Source: Escherichia coli
GTDB lineage: Bacteria > Pseudomonadota > Gammaproteobacteria > Enterobacterales > Enterobacteriaceae
Length of the DNA stretch: 64,000 nucleotides
Direction: 5' to 3' (one strand)
Assembly: GCF_022846255.1 (NCBI RefSeq)
Contig: NZ_AP025682.1
The first letter of the stretch is position 1. Every line of letters starts with the position of its first letter. This document shows, in pieces, positions 36,501-45,500 of the stretch. Made by a program: the position numbers.

Positions 36501-39500
36501 CCGTTCATCACACTTTCGCAATGCAAGAAGAAACCTCATGACAAAAAGAATGACCTTACACGGAAAAGAAAACGTCAGGAATCGTTAATGCCTCAATCTG
36601 ATTGTTATCAAAACATCCAGAAAGTCGTTTAACAGAATCGTCGTAAGCACATCGAAAAAAACGTCAGATTACTTCAGGAAAGTTCGGGTTGATTTAGCGT
36701 AAAGATACTTTTCTCATGCTAACGTCGAAACTCGAAATCTCAGGAAAGGTTAAACGTAACATCAGTAAAATCGAATAGCAGATTGATTGCTGAAGCAGAA
36801 AGGTTTTACAGCAGCATTAAACTGATTTAGTTAACGTAAAGATTTACTAAACTGGATGTGTATAGCAATGCTTAACGAAAACACTTGTAGAAGTGTTTAT
36901 GAAAATACGTGTATAAGACTTACTGAAATGCTTAGTAAAAATACTTAGTAAAATACGTGTATATAGTATCATACCGACATTAGCAACATTCTCAGACACT
37001 CATGCAGACTGAATGTTGATTACCCGTTTTCACATCAGGCATGGTTCTTTACTGACCAAAAAACAAACTGGTTTACTCTTGAATTATTTTCTCTACCTCA
37101 GAAAACATGGTCTCAGGAATCTGCTATGGTTTCATAGTTTCTGTTGTTCCTTTCATAAAAGTTATAAGTCATTGTCATAATCATACGATAATCACTTTAT
37201 GTTAGTTTTTACTGTCACACGCTACTGACTTTTTCAGTCATTGCCAGAAAGGGGCTCTTTTTACTTCCATTTCACCACTCAACAAATGCAAAACTTGTCC
37301 AGTAAAGCGGACCACCTCTTGCTCACAAGCAACGAATCATCTCCAGGAACAGCCCTCAAACATTGCAGAAACAAAAACAACAAAACCCTCATTATCACTG
37401 ATGTTCGGAAAATTTCCCGGAACAAAAAAAACGAAATCAAAATGAGACTCATTATCATGGATGTAGTCAAAAAGACGTTATGGTGGCTTTCAGTTAAATG
37501 GTACTATTTCTCATAAATCCACTTAACTTTTTTTACTGATTCATCCCAGATAACCACTTTATCAGTAAAAAATGAATTATATAGATTGACGAGTTTTTCT
37601 GTTTCAGTTATTCCCAATGTATTATGTATCAGTTGTAGATATGCTTTTATCCAGATTTCTTTACCCTCCCTCCACTTATCTATAAAACTTTCCAGCTTAC
37701 TTAATCGTTGATTTATAAAAAACGAATCAATATCATGAAAAAGCTCAACAAGAAAACAGCACGAGACAATCTCAACAAAAAACAAATTCTCCTTAAAAGT
37801 ATTATAAAACCTTATCAACACATAACGAAAAACACCTCCTGTTAATCTTTCCTGTTCATAAAACAACAAACCAAAAACAGGAGGAAATCTTTTAACCACA
37901 CCACTTTTAATCCAGTAAGGATGATGATTAGTCTTTACTGGCAGTGAATAAAAGAACAATTCGGTTTCTCTTTTCCCACCACAAACAGACAAAACTGTCT
38001 TATAAAGACTTTTTGAATCATTATGTCCTGATACCCCAGACGAATTAGCAGAGTATTTTCTTTTTACTTTTTGCCTTAATGGAGCTGGAAGAATAATAAA
38101 ACGGGATGGCAGATAACAATCGCTTTCAGAAGACCGGCATTCGCACACATGAAGATTTATATTTACATCCGGACAATTCAAAAACCACACAGAATAATTA
38201 TCGCACCGTTTGCAATATGAAACCCATGAATAAATTGCATAAAGTTCAGAAAGCGCATCTAACTCTGCTTTTGAATTAAATGTGATACCGTTTCTTCGAA
38301 TTCTCGTTTCCAGCGTTCTCCATGCCGGGGTTTTCAGTATCTCACGAACTTTTTTATTAAGTTCAGCCAGAGATGGTCCCTGCTCCTGTTTATGTTTCGT
38401 CCTGCTGTTAATGATTTCTCTTTCTTTTACTAATTTCCTCTTTCTTTTTGGTCCTTCTACCTTTCTTGGCAATGCTTCATTTAATCTGTGAACAGGATTT
38501 TGCTCTCTTCTTTTTTTGAGCTCACAAAACCTCTCATAATGTTTTCTGCACAGTCTTTTCTCCACTGCCATTTTTACTGAGAAAACCTGATTGTTACAAT
38601 TTTTTCTGACACATTTGTTTTTACGTCCGGTCATCCTCTCATCTCCTGAAACAGCAGTATGTCATTAGTTCCCGTTCTGAAAAACTGACGCCATACTCCA
38701 TTACACTTTAACAATAATGTCCGTAATTCAGACATTCCATCATTTTTCACGCCCATATTACCTGAATGATAAACCGGATTAGTGTGATCCGGTTCAGTGA
38801 AATCAACAGGATACCGGTATGTCATTCAGCCATTCTTCCCTCTCCGCACAAGTGAAATCATATCTGACGTTTCTTCCTGAAGAAATTCGTCAGAAAATTC
38901 TTGAACATCTCCACAGCGTTATTCATTACGAACCCGTGATTGGCATTATGGGTAAATCCGGCACCGGCAAAAGTAGCCTGTGTAATGCTATTTTTCAGTC
39001 CCATATCTGTGCCACGCATCCCCTGAACGGCTGCACCCGCCAGGCTCATCGTCTTACCCTGCAGATCGGTGAACGCAGAATGACGCTGGTCGATCTGCCC
39101 GGCATTGGAGAGACGCCGCAACATGATCAGGAATACCGGGCGCTTTACCGTCAGTTACTGCCGGAAGTGGATTTGATTATCTGGATCCTGCGGGCAGATG
39201 AACGCGCATATGCCGCCGACATTACCATGCATCAGTTTTTACTGAATGAAGGCGCAGATCCCTCGCGTTTTCTGTTTGTTCTCAGCCATGCCGATCGCGT
39301 GTTTCCTGCTGAAGAATGGAATGCCACAGAAAAATGCCCGTCCCGTCAGCAGGCGCTCTCACTGGCGACGGTGACAGCCCGGGTGGCAACCCTGTTCCCT
39401 TCATCATTTCCGGTACTCTCCGTTGCTGCACCTGTCGGCTGGAACCTTCCGGCGTTTGTGTCGCTGATGATCCACGCACTGCCACCACAGGCAACCAGCG

Positions 39501-42500: not shown

Positions 42501-45500
42501 TAAGCTCAACCGGGCGTTGTGGGTGATGGCAGAAACGCTGCTGGAGAGCATGCGCTGATGCTGTTTCCCTGAAAGTGCAGCCCTGACTCACGTCTGTACC
42601 AGTCCCCAGGCATTCTTCCATTCATTTACTTTTTATAAGGAATCATCTCATGACAACCTTTTCGCATAGCTCCACCACACCTTCTGTTTCCGTAACTACT
42701 GCATCAGGGAATAACCAGTCTCAACTGGTTGCCACTCCCGTCCCTGATGAACAGCGCATCAGCTTCTGGCCGCAGCACTTTGGCCTCATTCCACAGTGGG
42801 TGACCCTGGAGCCCCGTGTCTTCGGCTGGATGGACCGTCTGTGTGAAGACTACTGCGGGGGTATCTGGAATCTGTACACCCTGAACAACGGTGGCGCATT
42901 TATAGCACCTGAACCGGATGAAGATGATGGAGAAACCTGGATACTGTTCAATGCCATGAACGGTAACCGCGCTGAAATGAGCCCGGAAGCTGCCGGCATT
43001 GCCGCCTGTCTGATGGCGTACAGCCATCATGCCTGTCGTACGGAGTGTTATGCCATGACGGTCCACTATTACCGGCTGCGGGATTACGCCCTGCAACATC
43101 CGGAATGCAGCGCCATTATGCGCATCATTGACTGAAAGGGGCCGGAACAATGCAACAGATTTCCTTTCTGCCCGGAGAAATGACGCCCGGTGAGCGCAGC
43201 CTCATTCAGCGGGCCCTGAAAACCCTGGACCGCCATCTTCATGAACCCGGCGTGGCCTTCACCTCCACGCATGCGGCACGGGAATGGCTGATTCTGAACA
43301 TGGCGGGACTGGAGCGTGAAGAATTCCGGGTGCTGTATCTGAACAACCAGAATCAGCTGATTGCCGGTGAAACCCTCTTCACCGGCACCATCAACCGCAC
43401 GGAAGTCCATCCCCGGGAAGTGATTAAACGCGCCCTGTATCACAATGCCGCTGCCGTGGTGCTGGCACACAATCACCCGTCCGGTGAAGTCACACCCAGT
43501 AAGGCAGACCGGCTTATCACCGAACGTCTGGTACAGGCACTGGCCCTGGTGGATATCCGGGTGCCGGACCATCTGATAGTCGGTGGCAACCAGGTTTTCT
43601 CCTTTGCGGAACACGGTCTGCTTTAACCCGTCACAACTACATCACACTTGTTTTCACTTTTATCTTCTGTCTTCAGAGGTATCCCATCATGAAAATTATC
43701 ACCCGTGGTGAAGCCATGCGTATTCACCAACAGCATCCTGCATCCCGTCTTTTTCCGTTCTGTACCGGTAAGTACCGCTGGCACGGCAGCGCTGAAGCGT
43801 ATACCGGTCGTGAAGTGCAGGATATTCCCGGCGTTCTTGCCGTGTTTGCTGAACGCCGTAAGGACAGTTTTGGCCCGTATGTCCGGCTGATGAGCGTCAC
43901 TCTGAACTGAGTCAGGAAGGGCATTCAGAAGAGCAGAATTATCGCCACCACCGGACCATTCTTAACCAATTTTCTGTGAGGATTTTATTGTGTCAGACAC
44001 ATTCTCCGGGACAACGCATCCCGATGACAATCACGACCGCCCCTGGTGGGGGCTGCCCTGTACCGTGACACCTTGTTTTGGCGCCCGTCTGGTGCAGGAG
44101 GGTAACCGGTTGCATTACCTTGCCGACCGCGCCGATATCAGAGGCCGGTTCAGCGACGCGGATGCGTACCATCTGGACCAGGCCTTTCCGCTGCTGATGA
44201 AACAACTGGAGCTCATGCTCACCAGCGGTGAACTGAATCCCCGCCATCAGCATACCGTCACGCTGTATGCAAAAGGGCTGACCTGCGAAGCCGACACCCT
44301 CGGCAGTTGTGGCTACGTTTATATGGCTGTTTATCCGACGCCCGAAACGAAAAAGTAAACCACCGGAATAATCGTCTGTTCCGGCCTGGTGCTTTCACCA
44401 CGCCACTTTTCCATTTTTCATCTCTGCATATCAGGAAAATCTTCAGTATGAAAACATTACCTGTATTACCCGGGCAGGCGGCCAGTTCACGCCCGTCTCC
44501 GGTTGAAATCTGGCAGACACTGCTCACCCGACTGCTGGACCAGCATTACGGCCTTACGCTGAATGACACACCGTTCGCTGATGAACGTGTGATTGAGCAG
44601 CATATTGAGACAGGCATTTCACTGTGCGATGCGGTGAACTTTCTCGTTGAAAAATACACACTGGTACGTACCGACCAGCCAGGATTCAGCGCCTGTACCC
44701 GTTCTCAGTTAATAAACAGTATTGATATCCTCCGGGCCCGCCGGGCAACCGGCCTGATGGCCCGCGACAATTACAGAACGGTAAATAACATTACCCTGGG
44801 TAAACATCCGGGGGCGAAACAATGAAACTGGCCCTGACGCTGGAAGCCGACAGCATTAACGTGCAGGCACTGAACATGGGGCGCATTGTCGTTGACGTCG
44901 ATGGTGTTACTCTCGCTTAACTGATTAACGTGGTCTGCGATAACGGTTACTCCCTTCGTGTTGTTGATGAATCTGACCGGACATCAGCAGAGCGCACGCC
45001 ACCATCTGCGGCCCTTACCGGCATACGCTGCAGTACCGCGCATATCACGGCAAAGGACAACGCCTGGCTGTACTCGCTGTCACATCAGACGAATGGCACC
45101 GGCGAATCAGAATGGATTCATTTTACAGGTAGCGGATATCTGTTACGTACCGGTGCGTGGTCGTACCCGGTTCTGCGGCTTAAACGCCTGGGGCTGTCCA
45201 GAACGTTCCGCCGTCTGGTTGTCACACTCATCCGGCGTTATGGCGTCAGTCTCATTCATCTGGATGCCAGTGCCGGATGTCTGCCGGGTTTACCCACTTT
45301 CGACTGGTAATCCGGAAATTCACAACATGAAATCATTAACCACGGAAACCGCACTGGATATTCTGATTGCGTGGCTGCAGGACAATATCGACTGCGAATC
45401 GGGAATTATCTTTGACAACGATGAGGATAGAACGGATTCGGCAGCACTGTTGCCCTGTATCGAACAGGCCAGGGAGGATATCCGTATCCTGCGCCAGTTG

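Follow-up and report, generated by a model that had tools for sequence, protein, structure and literature searches.

A conserved gene block of the CP4-44/CP4-57/CP4-6 kind at the attR-proximal end of a pheU island in Escherichia coli

The closest described relatives of the gene block considered here are the elements CP4-44, CP4-57 and CP4-6 of Escherichia coli K-12. The block lies at 38819-44825 on the + strand of a 64,000-nucleotide stretch of E. coli DNA (NCBI RefSeq assembly GCF_022846255.1, contig NZ_AP025682.1; hereafter the window) and runs from a GTPase gene to the toxin gene of a type IV toxin-antitoxin pair. In K-12, the toxin CbtA binds FtsZ and MreB (PMC5624674), the homologous pairs YkfI/YafW and YpjF/YfjZ consist of a toxic and a neutralising protein (PMC5371832), and the antitoxin neutralises the toxin without binding it (PMC5624674, PMC5371832). 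The K-12 genes yfjXY-ypjJ-yfjZF form one operon, and YfjY/LfgB has been reported to be a protease (PMC10846083). No functional study on YfjP/YkfA/YeeP or on DUF932 was found in the literature searched. ArdB of strain CFT073, in the paper that describes its structure 2WJ9, is said to relieve type I restriction in vivo. Among regulators with the fold of the one in the block, BrxR and CapW are repressors, and PafBC and DriD are activators whose binding sites take the place of the -35 element. BrxR and CapW reportedly have palindromic operators in their own promoter regions, an arrangement also seen at the regulator of the window.

The block is very probably the core of a conserved, co-oriented backbone that occupies the attR-proximal end of an island at the tRNA gene pheU, an island of the CP4-44/CP4-57/CP4-6 kind with a P4-type integrase. 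It is already known and is routinely annotated by automatic pipelines in thousands of genomes; as a textbook feature of E. coli tRNA-associated islands it matters little as a finding. It is useful as an anchor, whose fixed borders delimit the island (attR at 46562-46583) and locate the variable slots, including the one that holds a rare OLD-like nuclease. A by-product of the analysis is that the gene beside the GTPase gene belongs to a fast-evolving family without a Pfam model and is carried in a cassette with fixed borders.

The pheU island and its conserved block

The window is part of the E. coli chromosome, with dsbD and yjdC followed by the tRNA-Phe gene pheU (3386-3461) on one side and with cadC (47200-48738) and cadB on the opposite side. 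An island of about 43 kb is inserted in the 3' end of pheU, between yjdC and cadC. Its attL site is at 3439-3461 and its attR site at 46562-46583 on the + strand, where the last 23 nt of the tRNA-Phe gene are repeated minus one G (22 of 23 nt in the alignment). The tRNA gene is followed by the open reading frame (ORF) of the P4-type integrase (3596-4924), with the Pfam domains Arm-DNA-bind_3, Phage_int_M and Phage_integrase, and the locus has the marks of a tRNA-integrated island: its integrase gene adjoins a tRNA gene, and the 3' end of the tRNA recurs as a direct repeat at the opposite border. The segment 38819-44825 forms the attR-proximal end of this island, and the DUF4942 gene that follows it ends at 46451, about 110 bp before attR.

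The spread and the conservation of the block are both considerable. With a 7.8-kb query against 5426 complete E. coli genomes, matches were found in 5039, and in 1809 of these at least 80% of the query is covered. Copies stand at a median of three places per genome and are nearly all chromosomal (14723 of the 14730 places, against 7 on plasmids). When the regulator is used as probe, homologues of 38-53% identity are found in the same arrangement in Klebsiella, Yersinia, Pectobacterium and Serratia. The shared arrangement begins with AlpA-like and YagK/YfjJ 'Gp2' genes on the opposite strand, one or two unannotated genes, the GTPase gene and the regulator gene; it continues with variable exported proteins (YfjS_YafY, YfjT, IrmA or an Ag43-type autotransporter) and with DUF905 or DUF932, and it ends with Antirestrict, RadC, DUF987, CbeA and CbtA, DUF5983 and DUF4942 before the island border. 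The gene order of the window itself recurs in MSHS 133, in SCPM-O-B-9427, in a second E. coli lineage, and in Klebsiella and Yersinia, the Klebsiella copy being one from which ArdB is absent, and the order adjoining cadC in strain MSHS 133 is, in the PGAP annotation, the same as here. The ratio of nonsynonymous to synonymous substitution rates (dN/dS, Nei-Gojobori) lies at 0.03-0.39 for every block gene compared, indicating purifying selection, with 0.07-0.12 for the GTPase, 0.12-0.15 for DUF932, 0.09-0.30 for CbtA and 0.12-0.13 for DUF4942. Along the block, the identity to two other islands flips between 99-100% and 75-90% at discrete points, and these abrupt switches are, as judged from the alignments, a signature of recombination among paralogous block copies.

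The ORFs are all on the + strand, the first at 38819-39703, and an earlier note on this DNA had delimited a segment from that start to 44825, borders which the ORF calls reproduce exactly. Eight of its nine gene labels also hold (GTPase, HTH-WYL regulator, DUF932, ArdB/KlcA, RadC, DUF987, CbeA and CbtA), and the homology to the named CP4 families was confirmed by Pfam, where the last six of these labels gave strong matches over the full length, and by comparison with K-12 proteins. The ninth label, a lipoprotein, falls with the missing lipobox; a DUF905 gene (41417-41650) had been omitted from the list, and the block, placed correctly at its start, continues past 44825 through a DUF5983 pseudogene and the DUF957 and DUF4942 genes to 46451.

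The first gene (38819-39703) encodes a YfjP/YkfA-type GTPase of 294 amino acids (aa) with a TRAFAC/Era-like G domain (Pfam MMR_HSR1 2.6e-15, Dynamin_N 7.5e-11). Its translation shows the P-loop GKSGTGKSS and DLPG, and its PDB sequence matches are confined to Der/Era G domains. The next gene (39906-40586) encodes a regulator of the YfjR family (226 aa), assigned by Pfam (HTH_11 and WYL) and by fold as a winged helix-turn-helix (wHTH) protein with a WYL domain. It is followed by the gene for an exported protein of 225 aa (40734-41411), recognised by its Sec signal peptide and, in the alignment, by four conserved Cys, and by the gene for a YkfF-like DUF905 protein of 77 aa (41417-41650; Pfam DUF905 1e-31; 62% identical to YkfF). 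An intrinsic-terminator-like hairpin of 13 bp (9 GC) with a T-run at 41671-41700 (+ strand) closes the regulator operon.

Behind this hairpin, the genes from DUF932 to DUF957 are separated by gaps of 11-91 nt, the CbtA gene overlaps the start of the DUF5983 gene, and the run is bounded by the hairpins at 41671-41700 and 45552-45578, the second of which is likewise intrinsic-terminator-like on the + strand and closes the run. The DUF932 protein (272 aa, 41740-42558; Pfam DUF932 1.8e-49) is of the YfjQ/YafZ kind, 74% identical to both, and a sequence search gave no solved relative in the PDB. The ArdB/KlcA-family antirestriction protein (161 aa, 42650-43135; 68% identical to YfjX/LfgA) matches the Antirestrict domain PF03230 at 5.9e-36 over positions 1-92 of 92, CFT073 ArdB (2WJ9) at 2.3e-95 over residues 14-161 and KlcA (2KMG) at 1.8e-20. 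The MqsA-type control known for the lfgA promoter of K-12 is not comparable, as the ArdB gene here stands 91 nt after DUF932 with no long upstream region. The RadC-like JAB/JAMM protein (158 aa, 43150-43626; Pfam RadC PF04002 2.8e-45) scores 149.7 bits against TIGR00608, above the cut-off of 133.85, carries the metal-binding motif HNHPSGEVTPSKAD (H-x-H...S-x-x-D) in its translation, and is 99% identical to YeeS and 78% to YfjY/LfgB. A YeeT-like DUF987 protein (73 aa, 43689-43910; Pfam DUF987 5.4e-40; 99% identical to YeeT) precedes the toxin-antitoxin pair. The CbeA/YeeU type IV antitoxin (122 aa, GTG start, 43990-44358) matches CbeA_antitoxin PF06154 at 9.2e-55 and the YeeU structures 2H28 and 2INW at about 1e-77, is 90% identical to K-12 CbeA, and its gene ends 89 nt upstream of the toxin gene on the same strand. 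The CbtA/YeeV toxin (125 aa, 44448-44825) matches CbtA_toxin PF06755 at 6.9e-58 over positions 1-112 of 112 and is 94% identical to K-12 CbtA over 124 aa. PDB sequence matches for block proteins also include YfjZ and RadC.

The remaining + strand genes are those of DUF5983 (YeeW-like, 44822-45310), a pseudogene here by an internal stop at codon 33 and intact in strain MSHS 133, of a small DUF957 protein (65 aa, 45327-45524), identified through an orthologue annotated as DUF957 by PGAP and without a Pfam match in this copy, and of the DUF4942 protein (280 aa, 45609-46451; Pfam DUF4942 3.3e-66), the last of the island. The DUF4942 domain matches the C-terminal half of a 548-position phage 'DNA methyltransferase' PHROG profile at 2.8e-16; here it could represent a methyltransferase accessory domain on its own. 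PADLOC returned only generic WYL models and a weak match of the GTPase to the dynamin-like LeoBC model (2e-6) for the block proteins, and none for DUF932, ArdB, RadC and DUF4942. A permissive Rfam search of 28000-47300 gave nothing in the block, and only sub-threshold matches upstream (psRNA2 at 31568-31733, 34 bits against 65).

The 225-aa protein deserves separate mention. Its signal peptide ends in SFSASA/GNW, an AxA/G cleavage site with no Cys at +1, and the cleavage site and the residues C30, C57, C82 and C135 are invariant in its homologues, which share at least 55% identity and occur in Enterobacteriaceae only. No Cys precedes residue 30, and the lipobox [LVI][ASTVI][GAS]C is missing at the end of the signal peptide, so that the lipoprotein identity given to 40629-41411 was rejected. 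No Pfam, NCBIfam, PADLOC or PHROG family and no similarity to YfjS/YafY was found for the protein. An AlphaFold2 (AF2) model of it (predicted local distance difference test, pLDDT, 79.3) gave a best Foldseek E of 0.05 against the PDB, with a local NTF2/cystatin-like likeness of the C-terminal 50-60 residues only. The interval between the regulator and DUF905/DUF932 (40586-41650 here, and its equivalent at loci L011-L019) is a second variable slot, occupied in every case by genes for exported or surface proteins. The 225-aa protein fills it here; the other loci have YfjS_YafY, YfjT, IrmA or an Ag43-type autotransporter. K-12 CP4-44, which lacks the regulator and DUF932, has flu at this place, between what remains of its GTPase gene and RadC.

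At the island ends, the 17-mer GGGTATAATTGAGGGTA/GGGTATAATTGNGGGTA, at 46491-46507 on the + strand with a twin at 3588-3604, provides candidate arm-type sites of the integrase. The sequence GGGTATAATTGNGGGTA has two matches only in the 64 kb, against 0.02 expected; one copy adjoins the integrase gene and the other stands 55 nt before attR. The 17-mer also occurs after DUF4942, at the right end of the pheU island of MSHS 133, and is missing from 18 other loci compared and from islands at other sites. Past the attR core, 46584-46750 is a copy of about 170 nt of the DNA downstream of pheU, with about 92% identity and including the pheU terminator hairpin (46593-46618), and at the equivalent position in a related genome PGAP marks an integrase fragment. 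This repeat looks like the remnant of an earlier island insertion.

The regulator and its operator pair

The Pfam matches of the regulator are HTH_11 at 6.7e-5 and WYL at 5e-5, and its match to the PADLOC WYL model is 2.6e-18. Because the Pfam WYL match is marginal (23.7 bits against a cut-off of 21.8), the regulator was modelled with AlphaFold from an alignment of 23 homologues to check its fold. The model has a pLDDT of 75.4, with 87-92 for the strands of the WYL barrel (139-191), and its top 27 PDB matches in Foldseek are all wHTH-WYL proteins (PafBC, CapW, BrxR and DriD; E 9e-7 to 5e-4, Foldseek probability 1.00), among them entries with bound single-stranded DNA (ssDNA). The fold, an N-terminal winged helix-turn-helix and a WYL SH3-like barrel, is confirmed at the level of the predicted model. 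The WCX extension of about 60-100 residues is not present as such: the protein ends about 35 residues past the WYL barrel, in three short helices, and has 226 aa against 266-330 aa in its structural relatives.

The spacer before the regulator gene, 202 nt long, holds two related sites. The distal one is the operator-like palindrome CGACAGGATGTGTCG (GACA-N5-TGTC; 39715-39729), 190 nt before the start codon, and the proximal one is the operator-like site CGACACATCCTTTCA (39831-39845), which precedes the start codon by about 74 nt and is closely followed by a -10-like CATAAT. The 12-mer AGGATGTGTCGC is common to both, in inverted orientation, and these are its sole two exact copies in the 64 kb. 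Nine loci were compared, with regulators 38-68% identical and with spacers that are otherwise largely diverged; in all nine a perfect GACA-N5-TGTC stands at -182 to -194 from the regulator start codon, and in all nine the second site follows about 110 bp away, at -72 to -77 and directly 5' of a -10-like hexamer. Other perfect palindromes number 0-1 per locus of 16-64 kb, and the sole other one in the window, at 14240, is inside an IS-type (insertion sequence) gene. Further operator copies were sought across the island to define a regulon, and none was convincing. In islands with the CP4-57-type order, where DUF932 is upstream, the operator pair still accompanies the regulator gene. In the block described here, the genes downstream of the regulator are those of the exported protein and DUF905.

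Since the operator pair is confined to the regulator's own promoter region, the regulator looks, from this distribution, likely to regulate itself rather than to control defence cargo. The conservation of the motif across loci likewise points to a self-regulated operon, in agreement with genomic systematic evolution of ligands by exponential enrichment (gSELEX), in which K-12 YfjR had a single target, its own operon (PMC8249747).

Proposed role and alternative explanations

In the reading favoured here, the GTPase gene would stand alone. The regulator would bind the two GACA-N5-TGTC palindromes about 110 bp apart, one of them overlapping the -35 of its own promoter, and would control its own short operon with a variable slot for exported or surface proteins, filled here by the presumably periplasmic 225-aa protein and DUF905. 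DUF932, ArdB, RadC, DUF987, CbeA, CbtA, DUF5983 and DUF957 would form one gene run between two terminators. By analogy with the near-identical CFT073 protein, ArdB would block type I restriction, RadC would be a JAMM-type metalloprotease-like protein, and, if the pair behaves as its K-12 counterpart (94% and 90% identical), CbtA would stop division and elongation via FtsZ and MreB and CbeA would counteract it. Jointly, the block genes may help the island to become established in a new host and to be retained later. Homologous recombination between the several island copies of a genome may also use the conserved block as its substrate and so shuffle the variable slots upstream.

Several points weigh against parts of this picture. 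The proposal on establishment and retention is drawn from three characterised families, that is, 3 of the 13 genes, to which the GTPase, DUF932, DUF905, DUF987, DUF957, DUF4942 and the 225-aa protein do not belong. No promoter was identified for the DUF932 run, where only 40 nt lie between the terminator and the DUF932 start codon, and the DUF5983 pseudogene means that not every part of the block is maintained. The relatives of the regulator include both repressors and activators, and it might be either. JAMM protease activity has been reported only for YfjY, which is 78% identical (PMC10846083), and chromatin immunoprecipitation with exonuclease digestion (ChIP-exo), under the conditions chosen, detected no binding of K-12 YfjR to DNA (PMC8464067). 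For this family, where ChIP-exo found nothing, the two-operator signature (GACA-N5-TGTC, about 110 bp apart) offers a testable binding site.

A different role, which we consider unlikely, would make the block the leading-region-like establishment module of a mobilisable island, which its HUH-type YagK/YfjJ proteins would mobilise or replicate as ssDNA, with the block expressed early in the recipient and the WYL regulator sensing the incoming ssDNA. Both Gp2-family proteins of the island, paralogues of the 'inovirus Gp2' kind (35258-35989 and 29924-30490, - strand), keep H-x-H and Y-x-x-K, which are invariant in eight sequences of 18-37% identity, and both have Pfam REP_ORF2-G2P matches. Such a pair of motifs is characteristic of HUH nicking enzymes. 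Each Gp2 gene is preceded by a long gene-free AT-rich stretch (35990-37090 and 30491-31550), 70-98% conserved between islands and without an Rfam match at threshold; in the first, A strongly outnumbers T on the + strand (AT skew 0.27), and a short 12-nt tandem array, AAAATACTTAGT, with about 4.6 copies lies at 36902-36956. Among the structural relatives of the regulator, DriD, CapW and PafBC respond to ssDNA, and ssDNA-bound PDB entries are among the top matches of its model. The block genes also all point in the same direction, and a combination of ArdB/KlcA with a toxin-antitoxin pair is typical of plasmid leading-region anti-defence islands (PMC11541004). Against this, no origin of transfer (oriT), relaxase or type IV secretion system gene was found, and profile scans gave no relaxase or type IV secretion family; the block is nearly never on plasmids (7 of 14730 places); and repeat scans showed no hairpin of the single-strand-promoter type in its intergenic regions, the inverted repeats being terminators and the operator pair only. 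The literature searched contains no functional study of YagK/YfjJ and nothing that links them to nicking, and the ssDNA ligand is an analogy only, for a regulator without most of the WCX domain.

Between the AT-rich stretch at 35990-37090 and the GTPase gene lies a replaceable cassette (37091-38742, - strand) with a gene for a 376-aa Cys-motif protein (37504-38634). Its borders are fixed in seven island comparisons, in which homology breaks off at about 37090 and is found again from 38743/38744 on, 75 nt ahead of the GTPase start, and its flanks are 93-97% identical between islands. The 376-aa gene is found in 462 of the 5426 genomes. Cassette proteins of 376, 407, 410 and 418 aa have an N-terminal C-x4-C...C-x2-H motif and align over their full length with 21-38% identity. 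Forms of 316 and 320 aa lack this motif, yet a profile comparison shows them to be homologous (hhalign 97%, E 2.7e-11). Pfam has no model for the family, the 376-aa protein matches none in PADLOC, and the family profile collects 62 clusters at 50% identity among 1.84 billion proteins. Close alleles have dN/dS of 0.13-0.30, that is, they are under purifying and not positive selection. The earlier note had taken both upstream genes, the 376-aa gene and an OLD-like gene, for cargo in hotspots, which holds for the OLD-like slot and not for the 376-aa gene. An intermediate view of the latter as an invariant backbone gene was revised when an evenly spaced sample showed other occupants, which were then found to be distant homologues. 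Because the alternative occupants are mostly distant homologues, the 376-aa gene is, by these comparisons, a hypervariable, fast-evolving backbone gene and not arbitrary cargo.

A broader proposal, by analogy and quite unlikely in our estimation, is that the block could be the early-expressed 'establishment' end of an Enterobacterales island family that travels or replicates in ssDNA form through its HUH-type YagK/YfjJ proteins, with the truncated WYL protein as an ssDNA sensor turning on its operon and the Cys-motif gene as an element-specific replication, exclusion or specificity factor. We hold it to be rather improbable that the GTPase and the divergent hypervariable gene form a conflict pair for defence or exclusion, with the fast-evolving protein as its specificity component. 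The contrast between flanks of 93-97% identity and a neighbour gene of about 20-38% aa identity between islands, within fixed cassette borders, would fit such a pair, as would the 62 clusters of a family without a Pfam model, the weak LeoBC match of the GTPase (2e-6), and a 432-aa relative (E 1e-68 to the family profile) that is again divergent beside a GTPase-WYL pair, on an 11-kb contig. The distant family members, however, are not beside a GTPase: on a 5.1-kb contig, one follows an AlpA-like gene next to a ParM gene, and another belongs to an integrase-DUF3987 island. This points to a core function of mobile elements (such as replication or regulation). The purifying selection on close alleles and the missing PADLOC match of the 376-aa protein also speak against a conflict pair.

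Further upstream, the slot between the two Gp2-family genes varies among otherwise collinear islands. Here it is filled by an IS481 remnant and an OLD-like nuclease; other islands have a restriction endonuclease with H-NS, an acyltransferase or YfjI at this place. The OLD-like gene (32883-34781, - strand) has an AAA_15 N-terminus, its best PADLOC matches are AriA (8e-22), GajA (1e-15) and Old (1.5e-13), and it is found in 25 of the 5426 genomes. It adjoins the IS481 remnant, and no partner gene is visible. More distant islands have Gabija-like, dynamin-like, SNF2/DUF1156 and PLD genes upstream of the GTPase, and K-12 CP4-57 has AbpAB and RnlAB between yfjJ and yfjP. The regulator might be taken for a master switch of the defence cargo of the island, as BrxR is for BREX and CapW for CBASS. 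Its fold class is theirs, and defence-like genes are often found some kb upstream of the GTPase gene and the regulator gene (a Gabija-like pair with a BrxR-type gene at locus L018, a dynamin-like pair at L019, SNF2/DUF1156/AAA_15 at L016 and the OLD-like gene here). This is very improbable as an explanation, and the earlier note's hint in the same direction finds no support. Irrespective of the cargo, the regulator gene and both operators are there, and they stay together even where DUF932 is upstream; no operator copy is near the OLD-like or the 376-aa gene, the only other palindrome being the one in the IS-type gene at 14240; a Klebsiella island with Gabija-like genes has its own separate BrxR-type regulator; and the single gSELEX target is the regulator's own operon (PMC8249747). 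That the block is inert debris of a dead prophage is scarcely credible: the K-12 relatives are annotated as 'cryptic prophages', several block families have PHROG matches and DUF5983 has a stop codon, but 12 of the 13 ORFs are intact, the order is kept at 38-53% protein identity across genera, ORF and Pfam scans of the block and its surroundings revealed no genes for phage structure or lysis, and the purifying selection on every gene compared (dN/dS 0.03-0.39) argues that the block is not inert.

Other cargo of the island includes a chaperone-usher fimbrial operon within 5219-10247 (usher 6724-9312, chaperone 9480-10247), an HD/HD_assoc (dGTPase-like) gene at 23965-25218, several IS transposase genes, a major facilitator superfamily transporter and a GFO/IDH/MocA oxidoreductase.

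Comparison with described systems

In plasmid leading regions, anti-defence islands (Samuel et al. 2024, PMC11541004) resemble the block in combining a co-oriented KlcA/ArdB-type gene with a toxin-antitoxin pair, whereas the block is chromosomal and shows no oriT, relaxase, ssb, psiB or methyltransferase, and no single-strand promoter hairpins were found in it. The antirestriction protein itself is near-identical in sequence to CFT073 ArdB (2WJ9), is a clear homologue of KlcA (2KMG) and has a full-length Antirestrict domain. Unlike KlcA of IncP plasmids, which is encoded in the plasmid leading region, it is encoded on the chromosome, in an island without detectable transfer genes. The regulator has the same two-domain fold as BrxR, CapW, DriD and PafBC, a winged helix-turn-helix and an SH3-like WYL domain. 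It differs from them in being 40-100 residues shorter, with most of the WCX dimerisation domain missing, and in an identity of only 12-19%, and it is not beside a recognised defence operon that it could control.

CP4-6 of K-12 (ykfA-ykfI) shares with the window the GTPase, DUF932, a lipoprotein, DUF905 (YkfF 62%), YafX (67%), YkfG (82%), DUF987, YafW and YkfI. It has no intact WYL regulator (ykfK and ykfL are pseudogenes), is integrated at thrW and shows lower identities. DUF932 and ArdB are 67-74% identical to their counterparts in CP4-57 and CP4-6.

CP4-57 was the relative to which the earlier note had likened the block. The comparison with yfjP-ypjF of K-12 bears out the kind of element and the gene families, and not the order or the nearest relative, since RadC-DUF987-CbeA-CbtA is nearest to CP4-44. 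Nine families are shared with CP4-57 (GTPase, DUF932, HTH-WYL, exported proteins or lipoproteins, YfjX/LfgA, YfjY/LfgB, DUF987, antitoxin and toxin), the two-operator motif precedes yfjR as well, and there too defence systems (AbpAB and RnlAB) stand between the Gp2-family gene yfjJ and the GTPase gene. In CP4-57, however, DUF932 (yfjQ) is placed between the GTPase and the regulator, ypjK, yfjS, yfjT, yfjU, yfjV and yfjW are additional, the identity is 36% for GTPase/YfjP, 43% for regulator/YfjR and 64-78% for the rest, and the integration site is ssrA and not pheU.

CP4-44 (yeeP, flu, yeeR, yeeS, yeeT, cbeA, cbtA, yeeW) departs from the window in its first half, where K-12 has a GTPase pseudogene and no WYL regulator, DUF905, DUF932 or ArdB, and where Ag43 (flu) and yeeR fill the middle, in contrast to the window, which has no autotransporter. 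In the second half the likeness is close. The proteins are 99% (RadC/YeeS), 99% (DUF987/YeeT), 90% (CbeA) and 94% (CbtA) identical in aa sequence, the DNA of 43174-44970 of the window is 92% identical, the order and the strand are the same, and in both a truncated DUF5983/YeeW gene stands behind the toxin gene.

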